From contig CAWGRW010000009.1 of NCBI GenBank assembly GCA_963825135.1, positions 96,001 to 160,000 of the forward strand: 64,000 nucleotides of DNA, written 5' to 3'. Under the pieces are notes generated by a model, which saw only the letters and a program-made list of their open reading frames with translations, searched no databases and was not told the origin of the DNA. Shown piece after piece: positions 1 to 16,357 of this stretch. Position numbers and translations under genes: made by a program. The first letter of the stretch is position 1. Each line of letters begins with the position of its first letter. This stretch comes from an uncultured bacterium. Lineage in GTDB: Bacteria; Desulfobacterota_D; UBA1144; Nemesobacterales; UBA2774.

Positions 1-338
1 TCTCTCAGGGGATTTATCAGGTCGGGGGAATAGGGGTTAATGTTTTCACTGTTGGTGTTATTGCGCATCGCCTCGACCGCGCTCTCCGGGGGCCCCGCGA
101 AGCAGGTCATCCATCCGAAGTCGGCCCACGTCCGGGGATCGAGGTCTATGCGGCCGTTAGCGTATATCTCCCCCGCGTCTAACCCGAGGATGTTTATCGC
201 GTCCCTGTAGGACATGTAGTTCCACATCCCGTGCGGGCTCTCCATTACGGACCTCACCCTCGCGGACAACGCGCGCGGGAGGAATTCAGGACCCGATTCC
301 CCGCCTTCCCATCCCAGTATGAACCTTTCTTTTCCCAT
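1..338 (-). CDS. PLP-dependent aminotransferase class I/II, N-terminal part (truncated by window edge)
   Basis: Manual translation from ATG at 338: MGKERFILGWEGG...DFGWMTCFAGPPESAVEAMRNNTNSENINPYSPDLINPLR, open to the edge; resembles the N-terminal GxP..P..V.EA....Y.....LR region of class I/II aminotransferases. Confidence 0.55.
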   Translation of the reverse strand, partial: MGKERFILGWEGGESGPEFLPRALSARVRSVMESPHGMWNYMSYRDAINILGLDAGEIYANGRIDLDPRTWADFGWMTCFAGPPESAVEAMRNNTNSENINPYSPDLINPLR

Positions 339-363
339 GCCCGGTATCCGGCCCTGCTCCTTT

Positions 364-1212
364 TCAATTCCTCATCATCACTACCGCGTAAATACCGTAG
401 GGGTCGAACGTGATTTTCGGGTCCCTGAAACCCGCCTCTACCGCCCACCCGATTACCTGCTCGACCGGGCGGAGATGCCATACGCACCTCTCCCCGTTCT
501 GGTTACGGAGCGCTCTCGCTATTAGCTCGATCTGGGGGTTCTTCGTCTGCACGTTAAACAGCAGCGCGTCCGGGTTGAGTACGTCCCTGAGCTGGGAAAA
601 GTGTTTCCGTATGAGCGCGTCGTCGTGGATTATCCCGTAGAGCCCGACCTCTATCACAAGGTCGGGCTTTTCGGCGATCGCCTTCAGGCTTTCCGTATCG
701 AGCGCGTCCCCGAGCCCGAAAGAAACCCTGTCCGTAAGCCCGAGACGCCTGGCCGTCCTCCCGCTTCCGGCGAGCGCGGTCTCGCTTATGTCCCTGAGGA
801 GCGCCCTCACCTCCGGGCCCGTCTGCCGGAGCACGTCGTAGAGGTAGTCGGCGTCCCCCGAGGCCAGGTCCGCTATGAACGCCCCCCCGCCGTCCCTCTC
901 CGCCAGGTAGCTGAGTATCATGTTTTTCTGTATCTCTTTGACAGCTCTCCACGCCCTGCACGTAACTTGATTGAGGAACGCCTCGTCGAGTTTCCTGCCG
1001 ATGTAGAACCTCCCGCGCGGGGAGTTTTTATAGACGTAATTCATTATCATCCCCGAGTCGAAACCGTGCCTGCAGCCCGTCCTTATGCCGTCCGACAATT
1101 GTCCGACCGTTCCGAGGAAGAAAGAGACGAGCGCGAAGTACCAGCCCCGGGGCGAATACCGGGGAAGCGGTTTTTGCAATTCCTCGAAGCCCGGCATTTG
1201 GTTACGAAGCAT
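364..1212 (-). CDS. SAM-dependent methyltransferase (YnbC C-terminal/Methyltransf_20-like)
   Basis: GIRTG..HGFDSG..MNYVY.N motif, motif I-like IADLASGD, GDALD; overlaps the upstream gene's stop. Confidence 0.75.
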   Translation of the reverse strand: MLRNQMPGFEELQKPLPRYSPRGWYFALVSFFLGTVGQLSDGIRTGCRHGFDSGMIMNYVYKNSPRGRFYIGRKLDEAFLNQVTCRAWRAVKEIQKNMILSYLAERDGGGAFIADLASGDADYLYDVLRQTGPEVRALLRDISETALAGSGRTARRLGLTDRVSFGLGDALDTESLKAIAEKPDLVIEVGLYGIIHDDALIRKHFSQLRDVLNPDALLFNVQTKNPQIELIARALRNQNGERCVWHLRPVEQVIGWAVEAGFRDPKITFDPYGIYAVVMMRN

Positions 1213-1768
1213 ACCACTCTATCTCCACGTCTTCTCTGTCGGCGTATATTTTATCGGCGACCGATTTTATCTCCCGGGCCCTCTTCTTTTTCGCAGCGGT
1301 ATCGGCGTTACGCTCGAAGTATTTCCTGAGCTGGCGGAGGTGTCTCCTCACGTCTTTCTGCACCTTCTCTACTACGAGGCGGCTCTTTTCGTCGGCTGCG
1401 TCGCGGTACACATCGAGGAGCGCCGAGAAATGAATGAGCGATCCCCAGGCGTACGCGAGCTCGTCGAACGTATCGTTGTAGGTCTCGAGTATGTCGTAGA
1501 TCTCCCGGCCTATCCGCGGGGGCGTGTACGTCTCGGGGGTCTCTCCGAGCTCGCGCGCCCTGTCCGAGAAGAGCTTCGCGTGCCTGGCGTTGTCCGCGAT
1601 GATCCCGGCCGCGACCAGCTTGACGCCGGGGTCCCTTATCGACTTGAGCTTCGCCCCGAAGAGGTCGACCCACGCGAGCATCCCGTACGTATGCCTGCTG
1701 AACGCCCTCGCCAGGCGCCTCGGGTCCGACAACACCTCTCTCAGTCTATCGGGATTGCGTATGCTCAT
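1202..1768 (-). CDS. ferritin-like domain protein
   Basis: Helical protein with two DxxxH motifs (DNARH, DVRRH) and RARELGETP, typical of four-helix ferritin-like bundles; ATG at 1768. Confidence 0.6.
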   Translation of the reverse strand: MSIRNPDRLREVLSDPRRLARAFSRHTYGMLAWVDLFGAKLKSIRDPGVKLVAAGIIADNARHAKLFSDRARELGETPETYTPPRIGREIYDILETYNDTFDELAYAWGSLIHFSALLDVYRDAADEKSRLVVEKVQKDVRRHLRQLRKYFERNADTAAKKKRAREIKSVADKIYADREDVEIEWYAS

Positions 1769-1828
1769 AACCTTTACCCTCTCTAACTTATGCAAACAGG
1801 GATAGTCCGTCCCGGCGCCGGGGCGGAC

Positions 1829-2284
1829 TCAGTACATCTTTTTCAATATATCTATGATTTTTTCATCGCCCCCTGCGGGCGCTTCCCATTCCACCTGAAC
1901 GACCTCTACGCCCTGAGCCTCGAGAGCGTCCCTGAATATGTCGAGCCCGATGTTTACGGCCAGTATCTCCCGGTTGAATATGTCCCGCGATTCGCCCCCT
2001 GCACCCGTAGAGCCCGCTGAGATCATCTCCTCCATTGCGTCAAGCGCCTTTTCCGCCGCCTCATCCGAATCGGCTTCGACGACCATCACGAGGTCGCCGC
2101 CCCCGGCGCCCTTTATCCCGGGCGTCAGGAGCCCGGCGGATTCGAGCGCGAACCTGGCCTTGTCCGTAGCCATTACGGCGGTCGCCTTCTTCACCCCTTC
2201 CATCCCGCCCGCGGTCTTCGATATGCGCATCAAGCGGAGCGCGTCCTGAAAGTAATTCTTTTTGATCCTGAATTTAAGCGGCAA
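1829..2284 (-). CDS. small FdrA-related protein (FdrA N-terminal domain joined to FdrA C-terminal domain)
   Basis: TTG start after AAGGAG; N-terminus KKNYFQDALRLMRIS...MAT...DLVMVVEA matches the N-terminus of the fdrA at 11246; C-terminus AVNIGLDIF..LEAQG..VVQVEW.APAGG resembles the E. coli FdrA C-terminus. Confidence 0.7.
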   Translation of the reverse strand: MPLKFRIKKNYFQDALRLMRISKTAGGMEGVKKATAVMATDKARFALESAGLLTPGIKGAGGGDLVMVVEADSDEAAEKALDAMEEMISAGSTGAGGESRDIFNREILAVNIGLDIFRDALEAQGVEVVQVEWEAPAGGDEKIIDILKKMY

Positions 2285-2313
2285 TGCCCCTCTCCTTGAT
2301 CCTCCCGTCCGCC

Positions 2314-2700
2314 CTATGCGATTACGTATTCGATAGGGCACGGGTTCATAATGGTCCTGCTCACAAAACAGTATTTTTTCGCCTCGTCGATGAGCCCTTC
2401 CAGGGTCCGGGTCGGGACCGTGCTCATGACTTTAACGACGATCTTCGTAAATAGAAAGTTCTTCGTGTCCTTCTCCCCCTCGACCTCGACCTCCATATCC
2501 TCGACCTCTATCTGCCTCTTGCCGGCGGCGTATATGAGCGCCATGCAGAAGCAGGAAGCGAGCGACGCGAGGAAAAGCTCTGTCGGCATCATGCCCGTAT
2601 CGTCGCCGCTGAAATCCACAGGCTCGTCCGTCAGCACCCTGAACTGCCGGGCTCTCACGTCCACCTGATACCTCATCTTCCAGAATGCCTTTACGCTCAT
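2314..2700 (-). CDS. OsmC/Ohr family protein
   Basis: DEP...GDDTGMMPTELFLASLASC and KYCFVSRTI motifs. Confidence 0.85.
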   Translation of the reverse strand: MSVKAFWKMRYQVDVRARQFRVLTDEPVDFSGDDTGMMPTELFLASLASCFCMALIYAAGKRQIEVEDMEVEVEGEKDTKNFLFTKIVVKVMSTVPTRTLEGLIDEAKKYCFVSRTIMNPCPIEYVIA

Positions 2701-2701
2701 A

Positions 2702-3907
2702 TCATCTCCTCACCACAACCGTCTCTTTTTCGCCGATGCCGGTACCGTTCAGTATGCCTGTGTAGAACACGACGTGCCCGCGGGCGGCGTTCTCCCAGCT
2801 GTATTCCTCCGCTGTCTCTCTCCCCTTAGAAGCGAGCGCGAGCCCGAGCTCTCCGTTCTCCGCGAGCTCGATGATCAGGGACGCGATACGATCAGAGTCC
2901 ATCGGGGACACGAGGAGCGAATTCTCCCCGTCCCTCAGATACTCGGTCATGGGCTCTATGCCCGAAGCGATAACGGGCACGCCCGAGGCGAGGGCCTCCA
3001 AAACGACCAACCCCCACCCTTCCCTGACCGACGGGAAAACGAAGACGTCCGCCGCGTGATAGAGTCGGGCGACCTCGTCCTCCGATACGCTGCCCGGTAT
3101 GAATATATCCTTCCCGACGGCGAGCCCGAGCCTCTCCGCCCCGGAGAAGAACTCTTCCCTGTACGCCCTGTAATCGAAAAGCGTCTCACCGCCCCCGATG
3201 ACCCAGACGAGCCTCTCGCCTTTCTCTTGAAAATGAGACCTGGCAGCGTGAAATGCCGTGAGAGACGTCAGCGTGTTTTTCCTCGGCTCTATGCCGCCTA
3301 TGCTCAGCATCACCCTCGCGCCCCCGAGCGAGAATTTCTCCTTATACGTTTCTTTAGAGCCCTCGTCCGGGAGCGGGCGGAACCTCAGCGTGTCCACTCC
3401 GTTCCTGATGACGGTCGAGCGGAGAGAGTACGCCGACAACAGCTCTCTCTCCCATGCCTCGCTTACGGTGATTAAATAATCGGGCTCGATAATGCTTTTT
3501 AGCTGGCATTCGATTAAGGCCTCGGAAGTGAAGTCGTCTATATGGTGGACGGTCCTCGCGAAGGACCCGATCAGGCCCCCTTGTCTCAGGTTCAACAGCG
3601 CGTTTGCCGAAATGCAGTCCTCGGCGTGGAATATATCGTGCGCGAGGGCGTGCGAGGAGAGGTATTCGGTGTATATATTTATGTAGTCCCTGATTTTTTC
3701 GTCCATGCCCGCGTATTCCTTTTTCGGACACGGGATGAGCGTATGGGGGACCGATACGTCCCTGAAAAAATTTCCCCCCGAGGATAGCGAGTACACGCGG
3801 ACGGCGTGTCCCAGGCGCGCGAGGCTTTCGGCGAGGCAGAGTGTGTGCACCACGCCGCCCCTGGGCTTGGTAGAATATGTGAGGAGCGCCACGTCAAGCG
3901 ATTTCAT
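2702..3907 (-). CDS. MSMEG_0565-family glycosyltransferase (GT4)
   Basis: TYSTKPRGGVVHTL, RTVHHIDDF, GGIEPRKN, FPSVREGWGLVVLEALASG. Confidence 0.9.
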   Translation of the reverse strand: MKSLDVALLTYSTKPRGGVVHTLCLAESLARLGHAVRVYSLSSGGNFFRDVSVPHTLIPCPKKEYAGMDEKIRDYINIYTEYLSSHALAHDIFHAEDCISANALLNLRQGGLIGSFARTVHHIDDFTSEALIECQLKSIIEPDYLITVSEAWERELLSAYSLRSTVIRNGVDTLRFRPLPDEGSKETYKEKFSLGGARVMLSIGGIEPRKNTLTSLTAFHAARSHFQEKGERLVWVIGGGETLFDYRAYREEFFSGAERLGLAVGKDIFIPGSVSEDEVARLYHAADVFVFPSVREGWGLVVLEALASGVPVIASGIEPMTEYLRDGENSLLVSPMDSDRIASLIIELAENGELGLALASKGRETAEEYSWENAARGHVVFYTGILNGTGIGEKETVVVRR

Positions 3908-4978: not shown

Positions 4979-5227
4979 TCAATTAAACTTCTTCCAGCTC
5001 GGGCGCTTCCCCCCGGGATAAGACGTAAAAAGAATAATTTTTCTCCTCACCTGCCAGGGTATGGCGAGGTAAACGGGGACGAATATGTTCATCCACAGAA
5101 AAGGTATGAGCCCCTTCTCCCTGTAGGGTTTCGCGCAGTACTCCGGATAGCGGGAGGCGACGCTGTCTCTCGCGGCCTCCATCAGATATTTTTCAGCGTT
5201 TTTCCTGAGCCATAATCCGAAAGCCAT
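4979..5227 (-). CDS. small hypothetical protein
   Basis: 82-aa ORF, co-oriented in the operon, with an upstream GAGG and a short hydrophobic segment. Confidence 0.6.
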   Translation of the reverse strand: MAFGLWLRKNAEKYLMEAARDSVASRYPEYCAKPYREKGLIPFLWMNIFVPVYLAIPWQVRRKIILFTSYPGGKRPSWKKFN

Positions 5228-5331: not shown

Positions 5332-6681
5332 CTATTTCTTTTTCGCGAGCTCCGCGAGCCCCGCCTGGGCCGCCAGAGCTATGGGCTCCATGAGCGCCCC
5401 TATCGGAGGGGAGTATACGTTTTCCATCCACGCGAAGTCCTCTATGCGCGCCCCGCGCTTAATCGAGAACGCGAGGAAATCGGCCCTCTCCTTGATGCCT
5501 TCCCCGCCGGACATCTGCGCCCCGAGCACCCTGTGCGTGTCGGGGTCCACTATGAGCTTCACCCTTATCCTGGTGACGCCCGGATAGTACCTCGCCCTCG
5601 ATATGCCTGTCGCCGCTGCGACGAAATGCGGTATGCCGAGCGCCTTGTGGAGGGTCTCGCCCAGGGACACCCCGCCTATCTGCACCTGCCCGCCCACCAT
5701 GCCCCAGGGCACGAACACCGGGTCGTAAGAGCGCTCCACCCCTCCGGCGTTTGCTCCCGCCACGCGTCCCTGCGAGTAGGCGTGGCTCCCGGAAAGCCCC
5801 TGGATCGGTATGTCGGTCACGCCGTGGACGACCTCGGCGCAGTCCCCTGCCGCGTAAACGTCTTTCACGGAGGTACGCATGTGGTCGTCTACAATTATTC
5901 CGCCCGTCGAGCCTATCTCCACGCCTGCCTCGCGCGATATGCGGTTATTCGGTTTCTTGTGCGTCGCTATTACCGCCACGTCGCACTCTATCTCGCCGCC
6001 CGTCGTGACGACGGACCGGAGCTTTCCGCCCTCGCCCCTGAACTCGAGCACCTTCACGCCGAAGTGGATCACGGCGCCCTCTTCTTCGAGCGACTTTTGA
6101 ACGGGCTCCATGATGTCGGGGTCGGCGACTTCAGACATGAGCCACGCGCCTTCGTCGACGAGGTGGGTCTCGAGGCCCCTGTGCGCGAGGTTGCCGGTGA
6201 TCTCTATCCCGAGCGGGGTCGCGGCCATGACGACTACCTTCTTCACGGTGTCGAGCACCTTGTCGAACTCCATCGCGCGCCTTATGTTCTTCACGTAATG
6301 TATCCCTTCGAGATCGACGCCCGGCATCTCGGGCTTCTCGTACTCGAACCCCGTCGCGATAATCAGACGGTCCCAGGGGAATTTGTCCGGGCCCACGCTC
6401 ACCGTGCGCCCCTTGAGGTCAATAGCCGTCACGGCGGTCTTGAGCCTCAAGTCTATGCCGATAGAGGCGTAGTGCTCGGACGTCTGGAGGAAAAGGCGCT
6501 CGAAATCCGGTATCTCCTTTCCGAGCACGAACGGTATGCCGCACGGGCTGTAGGCCACGTCCTCGTATTCCGTGAATACGGTGACGGACGCGCCCGGGGC
6601 TACAGACTTCGACGTGGAAGCGGCCGATATGCCGCCCGCGCCCCCGCCTATTACGATTATCCGCAAATTATCACTGCTCAT
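5332..6681 (-). CDS. FAD-dependent pyridine nucleotide-disulfide oxidoreductase (NADH oxidase/CoA-disulfide reductase type)
   Basis: GGGAGG FAD motif, YSPCGIP single redox Cys, YAAGDC, C-terminal YSPP dimerisation domain. Confidence 0.9.
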   Translation of the reverse strand: MSSDNLRIIVIGGGAGGISAASTSKSVAPGASVTVFTEYEDVAYSPCGIPFVLGKEIPDFERLFLQTSEHYASIGIDLRLKTAVTAIDLKGRTVSVGPDKFPWDRLIIATGFEYEKPEMPGVDLEGIHYVKNIRRAMEFDKVLDTVKKVVVMAATPLGIEITGNLAHRGLETHLVDEGAWLMSEVADPDIMEPVQKSLEEEGAVIHFGVKVLEFRGEGGKLRSVVTTGGEIECDVAVIATHKKPNNRISREAGVEIGSTGGIIVDDHMRTSVKDVYAAGDCAEVVHGVTDIPIQGLSGSHAYSQGRVAGANAGGVERSYDPVFVPWGMVGGQVQIGGVSLGETLHKALGIPHFVAAATGISRARYYPGVTRIRVKLIVDPDTHRVLGAQMSGGEGIKERADFLAFSIKRGARIEDFAWMENVYSPPIGALMEPIALAAQAGLAELAKKK

Positions 6682-6784: not shown

Positions 6785-7918
6785 TTAACTCACGCCCAGC
6801 TGCTTCGTAAACTTTTTAAACCTGACCCCGCCCGCTCCCGCAGACTTTTCGAAATCGTGGAGCGCGGAGCATTCCCCGCAGCTGACGCAGCCTGCCTTGC
6901 TGTTCTTCGCGATCCCGTCGTACTCCGCGAGTATCTTCGCCGCCTCGGTGTACACGCGCTCCATTATCTCCGGCCCGGGCGGCGAGTTCCGCTCCATCGG
7001 CGTGCCGGCTATGGGCCTGAACGGGACTATGAACGGGTAAACCCCGATCCCGGCGCAGAGCGCCGCGCCTTCGATCACGGTCTCTATCCTCTCGCCTAAC
7101 CCGACCAGTATGTACGTGCTGACCTGCCACCTCCCGAACACCCTCACCGCTTCCTTCCAGGTCGCGATATATTTGTCGAGCCCGATCGCGGCCTTCCCCG
7201 GCGTGACGGTCCTGAACACGTCGGGGTCGAATGTCTCTATGTGCACGCCTAACGAATCGACGCCCGCCTCTTTTAACCTTTCAAGCCACGCAAGGTCCTC
7301 AGGCGGTATTATTTGAAGCTGTATCGGGAGGCCCGTCGCGTTCTTCACCTCGCGGCATATCTCCGCGTACTTCGCGAGCGCCTTCTCCTCGTCAGGGGCT
7401 ACCCCCGAGGTGAACACGACGTTCGTTATCCCGTCGAGCTCCTTTGCGAGCGTAAGGGTCTCGACGAGGCTCTTCGCGTTCTTGAACCCGACGGTGCTCC
7501 TGTCCTTCAGGGTGAGCTCGATGCCGCAGAACTTGCACCTCCTCTCGTCTTCCCAGAAGTCGCACGTCTGAAGGAGAGTGGTCGCGAAGGTCGTGGGACA
7601 GTGGAGGAGCCCTATGCGCTGCATCGGGATGCCTGAAGACGTCTTGTGCTCCTGGAACCTGGCGCTCTTCTCCATCAGCTCCACCTGTGCGACCGCGACC
7701 CCGTCCTTGAATATCCAGTGCTCCCCGTTTATCAGGTCCAGATGATAGGGGGATGCGCTGACGAAATCGCCGACTACCGGAATGTTCGCCTCGCCGCCCG
7801 AAAGAATTTTCAGGTGGAGCCCGCCGGTAGGCCCGGCGCCCCCGCTCCTGATGTCTTTCGTATCGGGAATCCTTAACCCGTAACTCTGCAACTCCACCTT
7901 AAGGGTTCTTGAATCCAT
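6785..7918 (-). CDS. MSMEG_0568-family radical SAM protein
   Basis: ELQSYGLR, RSGGAGP, ATTLLQTC-x8-CKFC cluster motif, PFIVPFRPIAGTP, C-terminal GCVSCGECS. Confidence 0.9.
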   Translation of the reverse strand: MDSRTLKVELQSYGLRIPDTKDIRSGGAGPTGGLHLKILSGGEANIPVVGDFVSASPYHLDLINGEHWIFKDGVAVAQVELMEKSARFQEHKTSSGIPMQRIGLLHCPTTFATTLLQTCDFWEDERRCKFCGIELTLKDRSTVGFKNAKSLVETLTLAKELDGITNVVFTSGVAPDEEKALAKYAEICREVKNATGLPIQLQIIPPEDLAWLERLKEAGVDSLGVHIETFDPDVFRTVTPGKAAIGLDKYIATWKEAVRVFGRWQVSTYILVGLGERIETVIEGAALCAGIGVYPFIVPFRPIAGTPMERNSPPGPEIMERVYTEAAKILAEYDGIAKNSKAGCVSCGECSALHDFEKSAGAGGVRFKKFTKQLGVS

Positions 7919-8051: not shown

Positions 8052-8543
8052 CTATACAGTCCAGGTGCTGAACATCATAGCCCCGGCTCTGTGGTGCTCG
8101 ATAACGATGTCGAGTATATCCGTCGGGTGGATCGGTATTACGCCCTCGAGGAAGTTCGACTCGTTCTGACCGAGGAGAGCCGCTGCCGAGAAACGGCACG
8201 CGAGGACCTTAATGCCTTCGCTAATCATCCTGTTGACGAGGTTCGGGTAGAGCTGTATGCCGGCGCCGTAGCCGTCGTCGCCTACGTTCGGCCAGCCCCT
8301 GTATACCGGGATGCCCGACGCAGGGCCGTAGAACAGCACGGTCGTTTCGTACCCCTTCTTCTTCGTCCTTATCGCCGTCAGCATGTTGATGCCCGCGACC
8401 GAGCCCTCGTAAGGGACCGAGTGAATGAGGAATAACGCCTTCTCGCCCGGTTTCGCCTGGTGGTCCGGATAGAGCTTCTCCTCGTAATTAACTAATGCTT
8501 TACCCTTCTCGGGCCTGTCCGCTTTAACTCTGTTTACAGCCAT
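8052..8543 (-). CDS. MSMEG_0572/Sll0783-family DsrE-like protein
   Basis: LVNYEEKLYPD.QA.PGEKAL..IHSVPYEGS, VLACRFS, C-terminal TWTV; strong RBS AGGAGG. Confidence 0.9.
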   Translation of the reverse strand: MAVNRVKADRPEKGKALVNYEEKLYPDHQAKPGEKALFLIHSVPYEGSVAGINMLTAIRTKKKGYETTVLFYGPASGIPVYRGWPNVGDDGYGAGIQLYPNLVNRMISEGIKVLACRFSAAALLGQNESNFLEGVIPIHPTDILDIVIEHHRAGAMMFSTWTV

Positions 8544-8734: not shown

Positions 8735-9673
8735 TCACTGCGTTATCTCCGTCCCGCCCTTTCCGTTGATGGCCGCGTCCATCTTCTCGGCCGAGGTGAT
8801 GACAGCCTTCTTCCCGCCCGCGCGGAGGAAGCTTATGGCGGCTTCGATCTTGGGCCCCATGCTCCCCGGGGGGAAATGCCCTTCGGCGTGATACCGCTCG
8901 GCTTCTTCGAGCGTGATCCTGGAAAGGAGCTTCTCCTCGGGCTTCCCGAAATTTATCGCGACCTTCTCGACCGGAGTAATGAGGACGAGTATCTCCGCCC
9001 CTATGAGCGTCGCCAGCTTCTGCGCGGCGAAATCTTTGTCGATTACGGCGGCTACTCCCTTGAGCTTCCCCTTCTTGTCCTTTAACACGGGTATGCCGCC
9101 CCCGCCGCAGGCGATCACGACGTACCCCCTGTCGGCCATTTCCGAGATCTCCCTCTTCTCCACTATATCTATGGGCCTGGGCGAGGGCACGACGCGCCTG
9201 TATCCGCGCCCCGAGTCCTCCTTCATCACCCAGCCCTCCCTCTTCCGGAGGTTCCTGCTCTCCTCCTCGGTGAAGAACGGGCCTATGAACTTCGTCGGGT
9301 TCTGAAACGCCGGGTCGTCTTCGGAGACCACGACCTGCGTCACGAATGCGACGGTCGGGTTCGACATCTTCTTTTCCGTGAACAGGTTCCGTAGCCTCTG
9401 CTCTATCATGTACCCGATCTGCCCCTGGGTCATGGCGTTACAGACATCGAGTGGCATGGGCGGTATCGACGAGGACAGGCTCTCCTGCTGCATGAGGAAA
9501 TTCCCCACCTGCGGGCCGTTGCCGTGCGTTATCACGACCCTGTATCCCATATCGAAAAGGCCCATGAGCTTCCTGCACATCTTATCGGTCTTCATTATCT
9601 GCTCTACGTAAGTGCTCTTGCCTTTATGGTCCATCAGGGCGTTACCCCCGAAGGCTACTACCGCTGTCTTCAT
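8735..9673 (-). CDS. arcC: carbamate kinase
   Basis: VVAFGGNAL, THGNGPQVG, DPAFQNPTKFIGP, GYRRVVPSP, AVIDKD, GSMGPKIEAA. Confidence 0.95.
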   Translation of the reverse strand: MKTAVVAFGGNALMDHKGKSTYVEQIMKTDKMCRKLMGLFDMGYRVVITHGNGPQVGNFLMQQESLSSSIPPMPLDVCNAMTQGQIGYMIEQRLRNLFTEKKMSNPTVAFVTQVVVSEDDPAFQNPTKFIGPFFTEEESRNLRKREGWVMKEDSGRGYRRVVPSPRPIDIVEKREISEMADRGYVVIACGGGGIPVLKDKKGKLKGVAAVIDKDFAAQKLATLIGAEILVLITPVEKVAINFGKPEEKLLSRITLEEAERYHAEGHFPPGSMGPKIEAAISFLRAGGKKAVITSAEKMDAAINGKGGTEITQ

Positions 9674-11246
9674 AATATCCCCCTGTCTGTTTCTCCCTCT
9701 CCCCCGGCCGTTATCCAGCCCGCCACCCTCGACGCGAGGGCATTGGTCGGAAAGACCATCACGCCTTCTTTCCTGAGCTTCTCTTCCTGGTCACGGAGTC
9801 CCTGGGGGTCCCGCTCCGTGCCGCACACGTGAGCGACGTACGCGACAGAGCGCCCCTTTTTCCGGGCGGCCGCCTTCGCCGCCCTTATCGCCGGCAGGAG
9901 GTCCCCCGCCGGGTCGGGGCTCGCGACGTGGCCGAGCACGACGTCGAAGAGTATCACCGCGACTTCGGGCTTCGCGGCTTCGCTCAGGAGCCTTTCGCTC
10001 CGGAGCGTCGCGTCTATCATCGGGTGCGGGCGTCCGACCGTGAACTCCTCCTCCCCCAGATCGACGCACGTGTTGCCTACGCTGACGTTTGAGTCCTTCA
10101 GCTTGTTTTTCTTGTTTAGAGGCGCGTTCGAATATACGTCCCCGAGCGACAGGGTGAGTATCTGCTGCGCCTCGTAGCAGAGCGTACCTCCCGAGAATAG
10201 CCCCCTCAGGTAACGCTGATTGCGCTTCCGCGAGCGGACGTATTTCCCGGCCTGCCTCTTCCAGCTCTTTCCAGCGCCGGGGGCGTGCTTCTTAATGCCC
10301 CCGTTTACGAGGGCGAGCGCCGAGAAAGCGGCTTCTTCGAGAGTCGATACGAGCTTTATATTCTCGTCTTCCGGCAGGCGCAGACCGTGCCCCAGGAAGC
10401 ATACGACGGCGGGCTTTCCGGTCTCGCCTATCGCGGCGAGTATCTTTTCCGCCACATTTTTCGAAGGCGGCTTCGAGACGACGAGCAGCGCCTTCGTATT
10501 ATTATCGCTACCCAGTATCCTGAGCGCTGCGAGCGTCATTATCCCGCCCACTTCCCCCGACAGGTCCCTTCCCCCGACCCCTATAGCGTGCGTGATGCCG
10601 GAGCCCAAGTTGCTAATGAGGCTCGTCACCTCCTGCATGCCCGTGCCGGCGGCGGCTATCACACCTATCGGGCCCCTCTCCACGACGTTTGCGAACCCGA
10701 GCCCCGTGCCGTTTATTATCGCCGTGCCGCAGCCCGGGCCCATGACCAGGAGCCCGCGCCCGGACGCCCTTCTTTTTAGCTCTATTTCTTCTTCTACCGT
10801 TACGTTGTCGCTGAATAAAAATGTGTGAAGCCCCTTTTCTATGGCCTTCGAGACCTCGAGCTTCGCGTACTCCCCCGGCACCGAAATGAGCGCGATATTC
10901 GCCGCCGGAAGGACGTTCAACGCGGTATCGAGCCCCTTCACCGCCTCGGCCGTCCCCGCCCGCCGGGCGCCCTGAGGGGCAAGGAGCGAATCGAGCATGC
11001 CCATCGCTTCGCTGCGCCTTTGACTCCGTCTCGGCCTCGACCGCGACGATGAGGTCGTTCGCGCTCGCCTGCTCCGGGGCCTCCGTGATGAGCCCGGCTT
11101 CCCTGAGCATTTTCAGATTGGCTTCGGTCGCCATTATCGCCGAGGCCTTTTTTATACCGGGCAGAGCCGGAGAGCTTCCGGCTGAGCTGCATGAGCTTTA
11201 GCGAGTCCTGGTAATGATTCTTTTTAATTATGCTGGCTATCGCCAT
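9670..11246 (-). CDS. fdrA: FdrA/AllF acyl-CoA-synthetase-like protein, with two +1 frameshifts (~11165, ~11011; possibly sequencing errors)
   Basis: Joined reading: MAIASIIKKNHYQDSLKLM..SG/LPGIKKASAIMATEAN..ESKA/EAMGML..ISVPGEYA..FSDNV..MGPGCG..GGRDL..GLFSGGTLCYE..FTVGRPHPMID. Confidence 0.85.
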
Positions 11247-11308: not shown

Positions 11309-12604
11309 TCAGGCCGCGAGCTTATGTCTCTGCCCATACGCCGTGACCGCCTTTACGAAACATTCGTAAGGCGCCCTCACTATCCCCGCTCCTATCTGCC
11401 CCGCGCCCGAGCTCTTATGCACGACGGCGCTGTTGATGCTGGGCAGTATCCCCGTCTCGACCACTTTCCTGAGGTCTATGCCCGTGGGCGTGCCCTCGAA
11501 GTCGAGTGCCGGTATTCCGAACTTCGGGTTTTTAAGAGTCGTTATGAGCTGCATTCTCTTCGTGATGCTTATAGATTCCCGGACGCCCCCGCCCGCGAAC
11601 GCGGCCATTGAAGGCGCGGCCGCTATGGCGAACCCGCCTAATCCCATGGTCTCGATTATGGAGCTGTCCCCTATATCGGGCGCGCCGTCCTCCGCGCTGT
11701 ATCCCGGATTGTAGAGCGCGTCGAGGAGATATGGCGCCGGGGCGGTGAACCACGCGTCGCCGAGCCCGCTGACTTTTATGCCGAAGTCGGTCCCGTTCCG
11801 GGACATGGCCGTAACTATGGTCGAATCCTCTATCCCGTGCGCGGCGTCCATGGCGAGCTTGCACGCGGTCATAGTGATGTTGAGGAAGAAGTGGCTGTTC
11901 CCCGCTATGAACCTGTAGACCTCGAGCGCCCTCTCGCGGGGCAGGTCGAGCTTGAAGAGCGTCTCGGCGATTATCTTGAGGAATATGTTCGTCGACGCGG
12001 CGTGCCTGTTGTGGCACTCGTCCCCCATCTGTATGCCCTGGGCGAGTATGCTCCACACGGGTATTCCGCCCGTCATGCCGAGGGCCTTTTTCATTACGGG
12101 GGCGAGCACGTCCCTCATCCACCTGAGCCGCTTTATCGTCTCTTCCCCCACGGAGCCGAACCAGAGGACCTTGCCTCCGCCCTCGTTGAACGTCGAATAG
12201 ACGGTCCTGCCGTGAGTTATGTCCTTCGTCACTATGACGGGCATCGAGGGGGAGATTATCCCCGTCATCGGGCCCACGGCGTCGTGATAGTGATTGGGAG
12301 AAAATTTTATTTTTTTCGATTTGATCAGCGCCTCCGCGCCCTTGTCGTCATGGGCGAGGCCCTCGAATATGAGCGCGCCCCTGACGGCCCTCTTCATCGC
12401 GTCGCACATCCTCTGCCATGTGACGGGAGGCCCCGCGTGGAGTATCGTGTCCGGGGTCATCCCCGGAACGGACGAGAGCGCGGTATCTACGCCCGACAGC
12501 ACGGGCTCCGTCGAGAGGAGCCTCTCTAACGCGCGCGCGTTTGACTCCCTTATGCGGTCGCCCATGTATCTCTCTACGGGCTTTTCGGCCCCTTTAATAG
12601 ACAT
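11309..12604 (-). CDS. DUF1116 family protein (YlbE/AllG-like)
   Basis: ILHAGPP, AVGPMTG, MGDECHNR, MSRNGTDFGI, PDIGDSSI.ET.GLGG, GQIGAG. Confidence 0.9.
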   Translation of the reverse strand: MSIKGAEKPVERYMGDRIRESNARALERLLSTEPVLSGVDTALSSVPGMTPDTILHAGPPVTWQRMCDAMKRAVRGALIFEGLAHDDKGAEALIKSKKIKFSPNHYHDAVGPMTGIISPSMPVIVTKDITHGRTVYSTFNEGGGKVLWFGSVGEETIKRLRWMRDVLAPVMKKALGMTGGIPVWSILAQGIQMGDECHNRHAASTNIFLKIIAETLFKLDLPRERALEVYRFIAGNSHFFLNITMTACKLAMDAAHGIEDSTIVTAMSRNGTDFGIKVSGLGDAWFTAPAPYLLDALYNPGYSAEDGAPDIGDSSIIETMGLGGFAIAAAPSMAAFAGGGVRESISITKRMQLITTLKNPKFGIPALDFEGTPTGIDLRKVVETGILPSINSAVVHKSSGAGQIGAGIVRAPYECFVKAVTAYGQRHKLAA

Positions 12605-12628: not shown

Positions 12629-13216
12629 TTATGATGGCGGGACTGCCAGTATCCAAAGTAATTTGGCCTTGCTCTGTCCCACGTTTCTCCATTTGTGTTC
12701 GAGGAGCGTCCTGAAGTGGATGCTGTCTCCGGGGGCGAGCGTGTACGTTTTATCGTACACCTGGAACTCCACTTTCCCGTTGATGCAGTAAACCAGCTCC
12801 TCTCCCCTGTGCTTCATCGGCGTCTTGCCGCTCGACGCCCCGACCTCGAGCACCGAGTACGCGGCGGTCATGATGAAATCCCCGTACTTCGTGGCCGATA
12901 TGCCCTGGAGCTCGAGCCCTTTTTTAAACGTGAGTATCGGCTCGCGCTCATTCGCCGAAACAAAAACCACGTCGCTGTCCTCTTTTTTTTCTTCTATGAA
13001 ATGGCTCACCTTTTTTCCGAGCGCGTCCGAGATCTTCATCATCGTCGTGATGGTGGGGGTTATGCCGTTTGACTCGATCTTGTGAATCGCCGCGGCCGAG
13101 ACGCCCGATTTATTCGCGAGATCCTTGAGCGAGAGACCCCTCTCGGTACGCATGTTTTTTATCTTCTCGCCGAGCCTCGATACTATGTGATCTATCCGAT
13201 ATTTCTCAGCCGCCAT
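12629..13216 (-). CDS. XRE-family HTH-cupin transcriptional regulator
   Basis: N-terminal HTH_3 (LSLKDLANKSGVSAAAIHKIE) and C-terminal cupin (HRGEE, GDSIHF...H). Confidence 0.92.
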   Translation of the reverse strand: MAAEKYRIDHIVSRLGEKIKNMRTERGLSLKDLANKSGVSAAAIHKIESNGITPTITTMMKISDALGKKVSHFIEEKKEDSDVVFVSANEREPILTFKKGLELQGISATKYGDFIMTAAYSVLEVGASSGKTPMKHRGEELVYCINGKVEFQVYDKTYTLAPGDSIHFRTLLEHKWRNVGQSKAKLLWILAVPPS

Positions 13217-14192
13217 TTTTCACCTGTGGGGTATTTACGGGATTCACGCCTATTAGAGGCTCTTCGTCAAAATTCCAGAACATCGCTTTTTCGCCGCCGT
13301 CCGTGAAGTAAACCCTGCTGTCGTTTATGACCCGGCCTATCGTTTCGCATACGAGGCCCCCGTCCCTGAACCTGTCCTTTATATATTGCGTCTTATCCGG
13401 CCGGGACGAGATGATGAACCCGTAACTCGGGAATGTCAGGAGCCACTTTTGGAGCGGCACGTCCCCGGGCGCAGGGATGCGGTCGAGATAGATTTCGGCC
13501 CCGGCCTTCGAGCCCTCGAGCAGCATGAGCGCTGAGCCTATGAGCCCGGCCATGCTCACGTCCTTTGCGGCGTCGGCGAGCCCCTCTTCCGCGAGCCGCG
13601 GAAGTATTTCGAGCTGCCGCCTGAGCTCGTCTTCGGCGAGCGCGCTCGAGGAGTCCCAGAAATTAAACGCCGGGTAGAACCTGCCTTCGAGGTCGGCGGC
13701 GAGAATAATGTCGTCGCCTTCGAGTGCGCCGAAGCCCGAGAGCAGGCGCTCGGCCTTTCCCAATATAAAAACAGACAGGGAGCCGGATTCGGCGTCTAAC
13801 GTCGTGTGCCCGCCCACTACAGGGACGCCGTAACGCCCGGCGTTGTCCCTTATGCCGCGCAGCACCTCTCCGGCGCTCTCCAGGTCTTTAGAGAAGAGCA
13901 CGTCCACTAGCGCGACGGGCCTCCCGCCCATCGCGTATATATCGTTCACGTTCGTGAGCACGGAAGTCCTGCCCGCGAGGTACGGATTCGAATCGAGGAG
14001 CGGCTGGTACACGCCTTCAGCGGCGAGCAGCAGATATCCGTCCCCGGATTTTATGGCCGCCGCGTCGTCGCCCAGAAGTATGTCGTTCCCGTCTATGCGG
14101 GGCGCGAGCGGGAAGTACCGCCAGAGGCCCGCGAGGTACTGCTTCTGAACGAGCCTGGTTGAGGATTTGAGTGTCCGGATCAGATTCTGCAA
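13206..14192 (-). CDS. sll0787-family AIR synthase/selenophosphate-synthetase-like protein
   Basis: LGDDAAAI, NVNDIYAMGGRP, VGGHT, AKDVSMAG, WLLTFPSYG. Confidence 0.9.
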   Translation of the reverse strand: MQNLIRTLKSSTRLVQKQYLAGLWRYFPLAPRIDGNDILLGDDAAAIKSGDGYLLLAAEGVYQPLLDSNPYLAGRTSVLTNVNDIYAMGGRPVALVDVLFSKDLESAGEVLRGIRDNAGRYGVPVVGGHTTLDAESGSLSVFILGKAERLLSGFGALEGDDIILAADLEGRFYPAFNFWDSSSALAEDELRRQLEILPRLAEEGLADAAKDVSMAGLIGSALMLLEGSKAGAEIYLDRIPAPGDVPLQKWLLTFPSYGFIISSRPDKTQYIKDRFRDGGLVCETIGRVINDSRVYFTDGGEKAMFWNFDEEPLIGVNPVNTPQVKNGG

Positions 14193-14211: not shown

Positions 14212-14703
14212 TTATGCGGAGTGGAGGTCCGCTTCCATCAGCTGGTGCGTGACGCCTTCGTATTCGACCGGGTCGCCCGCGGGCTTCCAGTCGAGCCTCT
14301 TGAAAAAATTCACGTTCTGAGGCTGCACGTACGCGAGGAATTTTTTGCATCCCCTCGATTTGACCGTCTCTACGGCGAACCTGACGAGTCCCGAGCCCAC
14401 GCGGCCGTTCCTGTAGCCGTTGGCCGCCGTGAGTCTCCCGCCGTACCACGTGTCGTTACCCGTCGTATAGCACCTCACTCCCCCTACCATGACTCCGTCC
14501 GGGCCCTTGAGCGCGATTATGTGTATCGCCCCCCGGTCGCGCTCGTCCACGTCCGTGCCGCTGAATATCTTCTGCTCTTCGACGAATACCGCGTGACGGA
14601 GCCTGAAATAATTACCGAGCTCTTCCCCGTTCTCCGCGATCTTGAATGTGTATTCCCCGGATTTTCGAATGTGCGCTTCCCCAACCTGTTTGAATGTGTT
14701 CAT
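14212..14703 (-). CDS. MSMEG_0567/sll0786-family GNAT N-acetyltransferase
   Basis: LRHAVFVEEQKIF, WYGGRL, FLAYVQPQNVNFF, HQLMEADL; ATG 14703 preferred because the longer start overlaps the predicted -10 box. Confidence 0.88.
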   Translation of the reverse strand: MNTFKQVGEAHIRKSGEYTFKIAENGEELGNYFRLRHAVFVEEQKIFSGTDVDERDRGAIHIIALKGPDGVMVGGVRCYTTGNDTWYGGRLTAANGYRNGRVGSGLVRFAVETVKSRGCKKFLAYVQPQNVNFFKRLDWKPAGDPVEYEGVTHQLMEADLHSA

Positions 14704-14730
14704 CCGCGGTCCCGGAACACCTGCCGGCCC

Positions 14731-14775
14731 GTCCACTATATTGGACACTATATCAACTTTAGTAAATCAAGTCAA
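14731..14775 (-). promoter_or_regulatory. sigma70-type promoter for the cluster with an adjacent inverted repeat (candidate operator)
   Basis: Minus strand TTGACT (14775-14770), 17 bp, TATAGT (14752-14747); GTCCA-N6-TGGAC at 14731-14746 directly downstream. Confidence 0.6.
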
Positions 14776-14858: not shown

Positions 14859-14887
14859 TTGACTAGCGGGTATTAATTTCCTATAAT
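14859..14887 (+). promoter_or_regulatory. sigma70 promoter of the FmdB-like gene
   Basis: TTGACT-17 bp-TATAAT, about 30 bp upstream of ATG 14917. Confidence 0.7.
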
Positions 14888-14916
14888 GTACGGAGCATAT
14901 ACTATAGGAAAACAAC

Positions 14917-15291
14917 ATGCCCATCTATGAATACCACTGTCCCAAGTGCCGGAAGGAAGTAAGTATTTTTTTCCTGACCGTGTCGGAGGCCCTGGAAAGA
15001 AAGCCGGCGTGCCCCGAATGCGGGAGTAAAAAGCTCGCGCGGGTCATCTCGAATATCTCTACGGTATCGAAAGCGGACAGCGCCAAAGAGACAGGCGTCC
15101 CGAAGGCCGGAGCCCCGGGTGAAGACACCGCTTCCCTCGCCCGCATCATGCGCGAGTCGAGCCGGAAGTCGAAGACCGGCTACGGGGAGCAGTTCAGCGA
15201 GGTAGCGGCCCGTCTCGAAAAAGGGGAGCCGTCGAAATCGATAGAGAAGAAGCTCAGGAAAAGGGTCGGCGAGACAATGGAAACTCATTGA
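14917..15291 (+). CDS. FmdB-family zinc-ribbon regulatory protein
   Basis: MPIYEYHCPKC...CPECGSKKL.RVIS. Confidence 0.88.
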   Translation: MPIYEYHCPKCRKEVSIFFLTVSEALERKPACPECGSKKLARVISNISTVSKADSAKETGVPKAGAPGEDTASLARIMRESSRKSKTGYGEQFSEVAARLEKGEPSKSIEKKLRKRVGETMETH

Positions 15292-15306
15292 CGGGGGGCA
15301 GTCCAC

Positions 15307-15400
15307 GGGGCGGATAAGGGGGACAGACGAGCGGGGGCAAACAGGGGGCGGATAAGAGGAACAGGCGGGCGGGGGCAAACAGGGGGCGGACAATGGGGGA
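15307..15400. repeat. G-rich 38-bp tandem repeat (~2.4 copies)
   Basis: ggggcggataagggggacagacgagcgggggcaaacag / ggggcggataagaggaacaggcgggcgggggcaaacag / ggggcggacaatggggga. Confidence 0.75.
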
Positions 15401-15499
15401 GAATGACCGGCGATAATTAAGCGGGACAGATAGACAAAGACCCGGGGCGGTTAGATAAAGACAATGGGTCAAAAAACAAAGACAAAAGGAGACAGTCCG

Positions 15500-16357
15500 A
15501 TGAGCAGCATAGTAAAAAGAAAGAAGATTTTCGATAACCATAGTCACATAGGGCCTGTGCCCGGCTTCGCTTACTACGGCCTGCCTCAGGCGGTGAAACC
15601 CACGACGGATTACGATAAGACAGAGGACTATATAAAAGGTATGGACAAGCACGGTGTCGACCGCGCCCTGGTCATGTCGAATTACGGCTACCCGGATTCG
15701 GCGCAGCCGTTCACGCTGAACCCGCTAGTCGCGGACAGCGCGCAGAAAACGGACAGGCTCATGGGGGCCATATGGGTCTCGGCGCTTCCCAAGGACAAGG
15801 AGCGCACGACCGAGGCGCTCAAGCTCATAGGCGAAAAGGGGCTCGTAGCGTTAAAGACGACCTGCCTCCTCGGAGGGACGTTTAACCCCGAGCAGTGGGA
15901 CAAGGAATCGGAAGAGCTCTGGACGATGATCCTCGACGCGGCCGCGGCTCACGACATGCCGTTCCACATACACACGAGCCCGGGCGGGGGGTCGGACATC
16001 GACGGCGCGCTCGCTCTTATCAGGAAATTCGGAAAGAAGGCAAAGATACACGTCGTCCACATGGGCGGCGGGGTGAGCGGCCATATCAAGTTCGTCCCCA
16101 GGTTCTTCGAGCTCGTGGAAGAGGGCTATCAGGTCTATACGGACTCGTCCTGGGCCGTAGGGTTCGGCTCGACGTGGCTCCTCGAGGAGATAGAGCGGAG
16201 AGGCGTCGGAGGCGACCGCTTCCTGTTCGGCTCCGATATACCGTGGAGCGATTTCGCGTCCGAGTACTGGAAGATAGAAGGCGCCGACGTATCGGAAAAA
16301 CTGAAAGCGGATATATTCTGGAACAACGCCGAGAAGCTCTACGGCAAGTTCTGGTGA
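15500..16357 (+). CDS. amidohydrolase family protein (Amidohydro_2)
   Basis: DNHSH, HIHT, VHMGGG and FGSDIPW metal-binding motifs; RBS AAGGAG before ATG 15500. Confidence 0.88.
   Translation: MSSIVKRKKIFDNHSHIGPVPGFAYYGLPQAVKPTTDYDKTEDYIKGMDKHGVDRALVMSNYGYPDSAQPFTLNPLVADSAQKTDRLMGAIWVSALPKDKERTTEALKLIGEKGLVALKTTCLLGGTFNPEQWDKESEELWTMILDAAAAHDMPFHIHTSPGGGSDIDGALALIRKFGKKAKIHVVHMGGGVSGHIKFVPRFFELVEEGYQVYTDSSWAVGFGSTWLLEEIERRGVGGDRFLFGSDIPWSDFASEYWKIEGADVSEKLKADIFWNNAEKLYGKFW

Follow-up and report, generated by a model that had tools for sequence, protein, structure and literature searches.

What does a gene cluster of the Nit1C/gpr type do when its nitrilase is missing and carbamoyl-handling genes stand among its members? 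The question is raised by a 64,000-nucleotide stretch of DNA, here called the window (G000:C9:96001-160000; contig CAWGRW010000009.1 of assembly GCA_963825135.1). It comes from an uncultured bacterium with a 3.13-Mb, 94% complete genome, whose cluster-encoded radical SAM protein shares 92-93% identity with its counterparts in Candidatus Dadabacteria metagenome-assembled genomes (MAGs). Nit1C/gpr clusters, known as MSMEG_0565-0572 in Mycobacterium smegmatis and sll0783-0787 in Synechocystis, occur in several phyla and are tied to cyanide assimilation in Pseudomonas. The left part of the window belongs to a single pathway cluster of ~19 kb and ~22 genes, a widespread 'carbamoyl-type' sister of Nit1C/gpr, and it is very likely that the genes of this cluster form one conserved functional unit. 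An initial annotation, made from the letters of the window, had described Nit1C-type genes interleaved with allFGHK-like genes; family matches, all on one strand, bear this out. No published description of the architecture was found: a search of the openly accessible literature returned no paper joining Nit1C with carbamate kinase or with DUF1116/DUF2877 (AllG/AllH), and none combining radical SAM, carbamate kinase and nitrile hydratase.

Leftward from position ~14748, the array runs unbroken on the minus strand, with genes overlapping or spaced by no more than 191 nt (Table 1). Its first half comprises, in order, genes for a GNAT, an AIR-synthase-like protein, an HTH-cupin protein, AllG, FdrA, carbamate kinase, the Sll0783-family protein, a radical SAM enzyme and a CoA-disulfide-reductase-like (CoADR-like) flavoprotein. 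The second half continues with an 82-aa protein, AllH, a GT4 glycosyltransferase, OsmC, a 170-aa 'mini-FdrA', a 197-aa helical protein, a Methyltransf_20 methyltransferase and an aminotransferase. Nit1C-type genes are thus interleaved, on the same strand, with AllG, FdrA/AllF, AllH and carbamate kinase. The cluster extends 3.2 kb beyond the left window edge. The initial annotation had advised looking there for a nitrilase; the cluster does continue, with the remainder of a 462-aa aminotransferase followed by a CysK/CBS-like pyridoxal phosphate (PLP) enzyme and a diaminopimelate (DAP)/ornithine-decarboxylase-like gene on the same strand, up to a convergent GMC oxidoreductase gene at the array's left end, and no nitrilase was found within 16 kb. 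Divergent from the array head, an FmdB-family gene, a G-rich 38-nt tandem repeat and an Amidohydro_2 gene follow one another on the plus strand. From the Nit1C family, the cluster has kept the triad of radical SAM, GNAT and AIR-synthase-like proteins, together with Sll0783 and GT4. Added to these, in place of nitrilase, MSMEG_0569 and MSMEG_0570, are an Amidohydro_2 enzyme, an AllFGH-like three-subunit set and carbamate kinase; a thiol-redox set (the CoADR-like flavoprotein and OsmC), a heme-oxygenase-like protein, a methyltransferase and PLP enzymes complete the inventory.

All five Nit1C signature proteins score above the curated NCBIfam cut-offs, the radical SAM and AIR-synthase-like proteins just over them, as expected of a sister subfamily. 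The radical SAM gene (TIGR04043) is present in a single genome copy; the Sll0783 gene (TIGR04044) lies directly upstream of it and adjoins it, and the GNAT and AIR-synthase-like genes lie 5.3-6.3 kb away in the same array. The radical SAM C-x8-C-x2-C cluster motif is found in 87 of 99 family rows. Searches with Pfam and NCBIfam hidden Markov models (HMMs) reproduced the family calls of the initial annotation, except that its 'ferritin-like' protein matched no family and that the Sll0783-family protein matched Pfam DsrE at an E-value of merely 0.11, which makes 'DsrE-like' a weak label. SelD, PurL, ThiL and HypE all lie at roughly the same distance from the AIR-synthase-like protein. SelD has a hallmark N-terminal Cys-Lys and HypE a hallmark C-terminal Cys; the cluster protein has neither, and was rejected as a SelD or HypE.

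Family searches detected no nitrilase in this part of the window or over the 16 kb left of it, in agreement with the initial annotation; across the genome, which is 94% complete, the best match to the Nit1C-type nitrilase model TIGR04048 is located over 1.1 Mb from the cluster and scores 233 bits, where the cut-off is 502.6. Likewise, the MSMEG_0569 flavoprotein (TIGR04046) has a best genome-wide match of 20 bits, and MSMEG_0570 (~100 aa, TIGR04042) has none. In their stead stand the CoADR-like flavoprotein, which bears a single-cysteine motif, YSPCGIP, and the unrelated 82-aa protein, which is always encoded beside the CoADR-like gene (31/33 Dadabacteria-type and 6/31 actinobacterial loci). 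The 82-aa protein was considered as a hidden MSMEG_0570 and rejected: TIGR04042 does not match it, and its own custom HMM finds nothing in classical loci.

That the triad acts as one machine is indicated by several fusions. In two delta-type loci (L039 and L043), radical SAM and GNAT domains are fused in one open reading frame (ORF), which, with an AIR-synthase-like gene, follows a NitT/TauT-type ABC transporter and an HdrD-like CCG/4Fe-4S protein; the triad, standing alone here beside a transporter, is thus the minimal unit. NCBIfam TIGR04050 models the C-terminal, AIR-synthase-like domain of MSMEG_0567, which we take to be a GNAT-AIR-synthase fusion. As a separate observation, nine solitary radical SAM genes from sampled Actinomycetota (L100-L108) score 266-312 bits on TIGR04043, some barely above the cut-off, and have neither cluster partners nor the C-x8-C-x2-C spacing; TIGR04043 therefore also catches a separate subfamily.

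The carbamoyl module was compared with its counterparts in Escherichia coli K-12. Identity amounts to 45% over 411 aa for AllG/YlbE, 44% over 410 aa for AllF/FdrA (with the THAIG loop conserved), 39% for AllK/YbcF and 29% over 133 residues for AllH/YlbF; the N-terminal 230 aa of AllH match nothing. AllG and AllH score above Pfam cut-offs and carbamate kinase above its NCBIfam cut-off, and AllG and carbamate kinase are each encoded once in the genome, within the cluster. Because the genome also has carB (1568 bits) and contains only this carbamate kinase, it is not this enzyme that supplies the cell with carbamoyl phosphate in general. No gene of the allB, allC, allD or allE type was found among the matches of the cluster genes or of the 16 kb leftward, the range to which this search was confined. 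E. coli AllFGHK splits oxalurate with phosphate and then yields ATP, NH3 and CO2 (PMC11326118, PMC9843812), and in MAGs of nitrifiers AllFGHK neighbours genes for the degradation of triuret and biuret (PMC12625717).

The FdrA score of 419 bits falls short of the NF004760 cut-off of 433 because the ORF is truncated by two frame changes. Its three-frame reading implies one extra base near 11011 and another near 11166. Since metagenome contigs of near-identical strains are one base shorter at 11011 (runs X1 and X4) and at 11166 (X1, X2 and X3), and since FdrA of relatives occupies a single open frame, the split is most likely an assembly error or a private lesion. An ORF at 10938-11306 (h122), examined as a gene in its own right, was dismissed as the out-of-frame start of FdrA. 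The decarboxylase-like gene is split likewise (L005 ~13296; G000:C9 ~93296), and other genes of this genome may hold similar indel errors. The 'mini-FdrA' exists as a separate gene in Dadabacteria-type loci only.

Several censuses show that the association is not peculiar to this genome, as it would be had the two gene sets merely come to lie side by side here. Among 120 genomes of the window's phylum, the radical SAM gene was found in 50, AllG in 53 and both in 49, which confirms the co-occurrence of MSMEG_0568 with DUF1116 that the initial annotation had proposed to survey. In the 50 genomes with the radical SAM gene, AllG lies within 6.1 kb on the same contig in 40 and on another short contig in nine, and is absent from one (G082); the four genomes with AllG only are 77-88% complete. 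Presence by family within the phylum (25/32, 15/15, 9/37 and none in six others) is patchy and therefore suits an accessory cluster. The pairing recurs in Actinomycetota and on many metagenome contigs. In a set of 78 loci anchored on the radical SAM gene (one genome per species), 33 were of Dadabacteria type and 31 actinobacterial, the latter from Solirubrobacterales/Thermoleophilia, Pseudonocardia and Nanopelagicales. At least one of AllG, FdrA and carbamate kinase was seen in 26/33 and 30/31 of these, respectively, the eight exceptions being contigs cut near the anchor; AllH was recovered in 48 loci with an HMM built here, and a nitrilase-like gene in none of the 78.

About 15 genes are common to the two phyla at ~40% identity, in rearranged order in Actinomycetota. 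A Solirubrobacterales arrangement (L049) consists of two divergent operons: one strand carries aminotransferase, methyltransferase, helical protein, OsmC, GT4, FdrA, carbamate kinase and HTH-cupin genes, and the other Sll0783, Amidohydro_2, radical SAM, GNAT, AIR-synthase-like (itself in the reverse orientation), AllG, AllH and a SLAC1/TehA-like channel. The methyltransferase is conserved in 17/33 Dadabacteria-type and 20/31 actinobacterial loci, and the HTH-cupin regulator in 23/33 and 28/31. An even sample of 301 Actinomycetota genomes returned 20 radical SAM matches in 19 genomes: six variant clusters, three classical clusters with a nitrilase-superfamily gene, one cluster cut at a contig end, the nine solitary genes described above and one fragment. 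Pseudonocardia ammonioxydans has both types, a classical cluster (L092, G001:C83), which includes a nitrilase-superfamily gene and next to which lies a second nitrile hydratase set, and a carbamoyl-type cluster (L067/L089, G001:C107). It also encodes a separate AllG (L084) that scores 306 bits on the AllG model, against 214 for the cluster copy.

What, then, takes the place of the nitrilase? The published classical order is YchN-like hypothetical, nitrilase, radical SAM, acetyltransferase, AIR synthase, hypothetical and flavoprotein (PMC1199592). Locus L091 retains it, with a nitrilase-superfamily gene between the Sll0783 and radical SAM genes; in L092 and L093, this gene lies beyond the AIR-synthase-like gene instead. 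In the carbamoyl type, the position between Sll0783 and radical SAM is held by Amidohydro_2 in 22/31 actinobacterial loci and in L096-L098, and in L095 and L099 Amidohydro_2 lies directly upstream of the radical SAM gene. Among Dadabacteria-type loci, the same gene stands between carbamate kinase and Sll0783 in 12/33 and divergent at the operon head in 11 others, the window included. In six Pseudonocardia/Nanopelagicales loci, the slot is taken by genes for the beta and alpha subunits and the accessory protein of nitrile hydratase, each scoring above its NCBIfam cut-off; these clusters retain AllFGH and carbamate kinase, with AllG and AllH just upstream. Gene position thus supports the suggestion of the initial annotation that the amidohydrolase may replace the nitrilase. 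The CN-hydrolases of classical actinobacterial clusters find their best match in N-carbamoylputrescine amidase (AguB), at 102-106 bits against a cut-off of 410.

The amidohydrolase has seven invariant residues (H26, H28, K131, H168, H170, H199 and D258), which a TIM-barrel model (predicted local distance difference test score, pLDDT, 87) places at the ends of strands 1, 4, 5, 6 and 8. Among solved structures, it comes closest to ACMSD, IDCase, LigI and LigJ (E 1.6e-11, template modelling (TM) score 0.62-0.67, identity 13-19%). The invariant strand-4 lysine had prompted consideration of a hydantoinase/allantoinase-type cyclic amidohydrolase; the fold search favours the ACMSD type and leaves that assignment conceivable at best. 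No characterised Amidohydro_2 member is known to take the place of either a nitrilase-superfamily enzyme or a nitrile hydratase. With the amidohydrolase as anchor, a search of metagenomes retrieved at least 575 relatives, and the best 80 loci were examined: 65 of them carry cluster genes, and the remaining 15 are contigs of at most 5.7 kb. The amidohydrolase therefore belongs to the cluster unit.

The same metagenome loci include a fourth arrangement (~25 loci), in which the amidohydrolase is 77-85% identical to that of the window and the adjoining radical SAM protein 37-41%; in L118, L127, L129, L131, L134-L137, L141, L143-L146, L153 and L157, many of them from marine samples, the radical SAM, GNAT and AllG proteins are 37-51% identical. 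These identities suggest that the hydrolase may have been exchanged between lineages, or that it is far more constrained than its neighbours.

Taken as a natural swap experiment, the variant places a nitrilase-superfamily enzyme, a nitrile hydratase or a metal hydrolase in one position, and the clusters without nitrilase carry an enzyme set that handles carbamoyl phosphate. The swap pattern narrows the intermediate to something convertible into a carbamoyl (ureido) compound. On the strength of the 39-45% identity of AllF, AllG and AllK to the E. coli enzymes and of the triuret/biuret context, disposal of this carbamoyl group by phosphorolysis is proposed. Our tentative proposal, which we rate as possible rather than probable, is that the slot hydrolase, AllFGH-like phosphorolysis and carbamate kinase together replace the one-step nitrilase. 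In this scheme, the core enzymes would start from a precursor derived from an amino acid and produce an intermediate bearing a nitrile, amide or ureide group, which the slot enzyme (Amidohydro_2, or nitrile hydratase in the Pseudonocardia type) would hydrate or hydrolyse to a carbamoyl (ureido) compound; by our reasoning, just such a compound would result if nitrile hydratase attacked a cyano group linked to N or S. The AllFGH-like enzyme would then cleave it with phosphate to give carbamoyl phosphate, from which carbamate kinase would generate ATP, NH3 and CO2. The net outcome would equal that of the one-step nitrilase-superfamily hydrolase of classical clusters, with a gain of ATP. The scheme fits the presence of a sole carbamate kinase alongside CarB, as well as the AguB-like, if sub-cut-off, CN-hydrolases of classical clusters. 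Nitrogen scavenging, as proposed in the initial annotation, the carbamoyl transfer and the direction of that transfer are all inferred from homology (44-45% for AllF and AllG, 39% for AllK, 29% for AllH).

A number of observations weigh against this scheme. The cluster gene families include no uptake transporter, and many are of kinds usual in biosynthetic pathways (aminotransferase, CysK-like PLP enzyme, decarboxylase, methyltransferase, GT4 and radical SAM), suiting the making of a compound better than scavenging. The Pseudonocardia-type cluster further adds ComA, two ASL/PurB-like lyases and an AIRC-like gene. AllH matches its E. coli counterpart over the last third only, the likeness of the classical CN-hydrolases to AguB falls far short of the family cut-off, and a shared gene position is no proof of a shared reaction step. 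Hydrolysis of a C-N bond by the amidohydrolase may itself be doubted, as the nearest solved relatives are mostly decarboxylases, with a hydratase and a lactonase among them. Finally, the redox phenotypes described for a classical cluster are left unexplained by simple nitrogen release (PMC6039565). Because of the missing transporter, the biosynthetic enzymes, the Pseudonocardia extras and these phenotypes, biosynthetic and redox explanations keep substantial weight.

Phylogeny adds a further adverse point. In a tree of 99 radical SAM rows, the Dadabacteria variant forms one clade (support 100) and the actinobacterial variant another (99); on the free tree, the latter is sister to the classical clade (95) and not to the Dadabacteria variant. 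The fourth arrangement forms its own clade (100), and the deep branches are weak. Placing all variant radical SAM proteins in one clade was compatible with the data in an approximately unbiased test (p 0.61), and a single origin is thus not rejected.

The alternative that survives best reverses the direction of the module. Somewhat unlikely in our estimation, it would have carbamate kinase supply carbamoyl phosphate, with which the AllFGH-like enzyme would carbamoylate an amine or amide intermediate; the AIR-synthase-like protein would activate a carbonyl with ATP, for example in a HypE-like conversion of carboxamide to cyano, and maturation or recycling of the product, a glycosylated, methylated specialised metabolite or cofactor, would fall to the nitrilase, nitrile hydratase or amidohydrolase. 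The anabolic look of the aminotransferase, PLP enzymes, decarboxylase, methyltransferase, GT4, GNAT and radical SAM genes is readily accommodated by such a pathway, as are the Pseudonocardia-type extras (ComA, two Lyase_1 genes, an AIRC-like gene and a PALP gene) and the lack of a conserved uptake transporter in the cluster. SelD, PurL, ThiL and HypE, the relatives of the AIR-synthase-like protein, all activate their substrate with ATP, a slot nitrile hydratase or nitrilase-superfamily enzyme implies a pathway nitrile or amide, and the triad is marked as one machine by the radical SAM-GNAT fusions and TIGR04050. However, the C-terminal cysteine of HypE is missing, arcC-type carbamate kinases and E. 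coli AllFGH run catabolically, the latter with a reported Km for oxamate of 36.9 mM (PMC11326118), and CarB already supplies carbamoyl phosphate; making and hydrolysing a nitrile within one operon would also need extra explanation.

A second alternative, which we consider improbable, is that the cluster makes and services a sulfur-containing low-molecular-weight antioxidant (a thiol or related compound), with the carbamoyl module in a side role. Assembly of the antioxidant would be the task of GT4, GNAT, the amidohydrolase and the CysK-like enzyme, the CoADR-like flavoprotein would reduce it, and OsmC would use it against peroxides. The classical M. smegmatis cluster is reported to be induced more than 500-fold by nitrogen starvation, to be necessary and sufficient for H2O2 resistance under this condition, and to raise the NADPH/NADP ratio (PMC6039565), and a Synechocystis sll0783 mutant has been linked to NADPH supply (PMC3901256). 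The addition of OsmC and a single-cysteine CoADR-like reductase fits this alternative. So do the next-best named matches of GT4 after its own family, which include MshA and BshA, the matches of the PALP enzyme to CysK, CBS and cysteate synthase, the weak DsrE/YchN likeness of Sll0783, ComA in the Pseudonocardia-type cluster and the NitT/TauT-type transporter beside the triad in delta-type loci. Nevertheless, no match to a thiol-pathway enzyme comes near its family cut-off, Solirubrobacterales-type clusters lack the CoADR-like gene, and both the conserved AllFGH and carbamate kinase and the nitrilase or nitrile hydratase in the slot would be left unexplained.

The notion of two independent modules that are merely adjacent, an oxalurate/allantoin-type nitrogen catabolism set and a Nit1C remnant, can appeal to the closeness of the AllFGHK genes to the E. 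coli enzymes and to weak promoter-like sites inside the array (e.g., 8678-8649), but is close to refuted by the interleaving rather than juxtaposition of the genes, by an association that holds in 49/50 phylum genomes, survives the actinobacterial rearrangement and recurs in metagenomes, by the lack of allB/allC/allD/allE-type genes among the cluster's family matches, and by the separate, higher-scoring AllG that P. ammonioxydans keeps besides its cluster copy.

A wider and rather doubtful reading would take the whole Nit1C/gpr family as a cycle around one nitrogen-rich, probably sulfur-containing small molecule, built by the triad, which would install a nitrile or ureido group, and relieved of its nitrogen by interchangeable 'exit' modules. 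The exit would be either a nitrilase-superfamily hydrolase or AllFGHK combined with nitrile hydratase or with Amidohydro_2; nitrogen release in the carbamoyl type would proceed by substrate-level phosphorylation via carbamoyl phosphate. If true, the cycle would constitute a new nitrogen-storage and redox metabolite system linking nitrogen starvation to peroxide resistance. The variant offers a chemical clue to the Nit1C family, whose chemistry, judging by the accessible literature, has stood unexplained since 2005 (PMC1199592). It also extends the recently characterised AllFGH enzyme type to a setting outside purine catabolism. Cultured carriers of the carbamoyl-type cluster, both with the nitrile hydratase form, include P. 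ammonioxydans CGMCC 4.1877 (L067/L089) and P. parietis DSM 45256 (L072).

The remaining features of the locus are collected in Table 1. The two strongest sigma-70-like sites of the 17-kb region, consensus matches only, form a back-to-back pair in the GNAT/FmdB intergenic region: the best (14859-14887, 11/12 positions) lies ahead of the FmdB-family gene, and the other (TTGACT, 17 nt, TATAGT at 14775-14747, minus strand) overlaps the annotated GNAT start, so that the true GNAT start probably lies downstream of 14748. A terminator scan gave 13 sites against 16 expected by chance, and thus no excess. With no Rfam match in positions 1-18000 at E-values up to 1, no riboswitch hints at a ligand. The FmdB-family zinc-ribbon protein may be a small regulator of the divergent pair. 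In a correction of the initial annotation, a 163-aa ORF on the opposite strand (h163, 14902-15393, minus) was rejected as a gene. This ORF is a low-complexity, Pro/Arg-rich shadow of the plus-strand FmdB-family gene, matches no family and is conserved in only four close loci. The repeat spacer at 15307-15400 is strain-variable, one soil contig (run X2) having 62 other letters for 15291-15506. After the amidohydrolase follows a 2OG-Fe(II) oxygenase gene (16498-17100, plus strand), as it also does in L007, L110, L112 and L180, where the amidohydrolase is 96-98% identical; a 437-aa ORF without family match (16563-17876) overlaps the oxygenase gene.

The 197-aa protein that had been called 'ferritin-like' has a confident model (pLDDT 93) unlike a classical ferritin. 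It resembles instead heme-oxygenase-like bundles such as TenA, CADD, BesC and UndA, with TM scores of 0.59-0.74 and a best E-value of 2.5e-3, none of the structure matches reaching 1e-3. Its invariant residues include R34, H35, N69, H72 and H122, and an HMM built here finds it in 37 loci. Sequence searches of solved structures gave nothing significant for this protein, Sll0783 or the methyltransferase.

Table 1. Features of the carbamoyl-type cluster and its surroundings, in window positions.
Feature	Position	Strand	Family match or remark
DAP/ornithine-decarboxylase-like gene	left of window	same strand as array	Orn_Arg_deC_N + Orn_DAP_Arg_deC; one frameshift
CysK/CBS-like PLP enzyme	left of window	same strand as array	PALP 286 bits; also matches cysteate synthase
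Class I/II aminotransferase, 5' part	1..338	-	462 aa in full, G000:C9:94950-96338; PF00155 104.6 bits
SAM-dependent methyltransferase (Methyltransf_20)	364..1212	-	PF12147, 170.6 bits
197-aa all-helical protein	1202..1795	-	no family match; heme-oxygenase-like fold model
'Mini-FdrA', 170 aa	1829..2341	-	NF004760 68 bits, model positions 6-99; start codon uncertain
OsmC-family protein, two cysteines (thiol peroxidase-like)	2314..2700	-	PF02566, 84 bits
MSMEG_0565-family GT4 glycosyltransferase	2702..3907	-	TIGR04047 396 bits, cut-off 260
AllH/DUF2877-like subunit, 362 aa	3894..4982	-	PF11392 65.6 bits, residues 231-345
82-aa small protein, one hydrophobic stretch	4979..5227	-	no family match
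CoA-disulfide-reductase/NADH-oxidase-like flavoprotein	5332..6681	-	Pyr_redox_2 165 bits; TIGR03385 266 bits, below cut-off 579
MSMEG_0568-family radical SAM enzyme	6785..7918	-	TIGR04043 336.9 bits, cut-off 303.7
MSMEG_0572/Sll0783-family nitrogen-starvation response protein	8052..8543	-	TIGR04044 170.2 bits, cut-off 109.85
Carbamate kinase	8735..9673	-	TIGR00746 404 bits, cut-off 358
FdrA/AllF-like subunit	9670..11246	-	NF004760 419 bits; three frames in assembly
AllG/DUF1116-like subunit	11309..12604	-	PF06545 288 bits
XRE-HTH + cupin regulator (PuuR-like architecture)	12629..13216	-	Pfam and NCBIfam matches
sll0787-family AIR-synthase-like (PurM superfamily) protein	13206..14192	-	TIGR04049 357 bits, cut-off 321.3
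MSMEG_0567/Sll0786-family GNAT, first gene of array	14212..14748	-	TIGR04045 143.3 bits, cut-off 68.45
FmdB-family CxxC-CxxC zinc-ribbon protein	14917..15291	+	PF09723 46 bits; TIGR02605 49 bits, cut-off 31
G-rich tandem repeat, 38-nt unit, 2.4 copies	15307..15400		between FmdB-like and amidohydrolase genes
Divergent Amidohydro_2 metal-dependent hydrolase	15464..16357	+	PF04909 69 bits, cut-off 26.4

Set against known systems, the cluster stands nearest to Nit1C, as described for Pseudomonas nitB-H, Synechocystis sll0783-0787 and the M. smegmatis gpr genes MSMEG_0565-0572 (PMC1199592, PMC6039565). It shares with these the same five signature families and the same radical SAM motif, and many relatives preserve the local succession of Sll0783, hydrolase, radical SAM and GNAT genes. 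It differs in that the window genome lacks nitrilase, MSMEG_0569 and MSMEG_0570, and in its additions: AllFGH-like subunits, carbamate kinase, Amidohydro_2, OsmC, the CoADR-like flavoprotein with its 82-aa partner, the heme-oxygenase-like protein, methyltransferase, aminotransferase and HTH-cupin protein, and, in Dadabacteria, the CysK-like and decarboxylase genes.

With the E. coli allFGHK system (oxamate carbamoyltransferase, or oxamic transcarbamylase, plus carbamate kinase), the cluster has all four genes in common, and FdrA adjoins carbamate kinase in both. However, the window AllH is 90 residues longer, an extra 'mini-FdrA' is present, the genes are scattered among those of Nit1C type, and no allantoin-pathway neighbours occur in the cluster. 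For these reasons, oxalurate derived from allantoin is, going by gene content, an unlikely substrate. The amidohydrolase shares with ACMSD-type enzymes (ACMSD, IDCase, LigI, LigJ and dihydroxybenzoate decarboxylases) the same TIM barrel, an HxH on strand 1, His on strands 5 and 6 and Asp on strand 8, whereas its invariant Lys on strand 4 and an identity of only 13-19% set it apart.

In the agmatine pathway, one route uses N-carbamoylputrescine amidase, a member of the nitrilase superfamily, and the other putrescine carbamoyltransferase with carbamate kinase. Although the carbamoyltransferase of the present cluster is of the SCS-like AllFGH type and not of the ATCase/OTCase fold, this pair provides a precedent for swapping decarbamoylation by a CN-hydrolase for phosphorolysis and carbamate kinase, with ATP gained.

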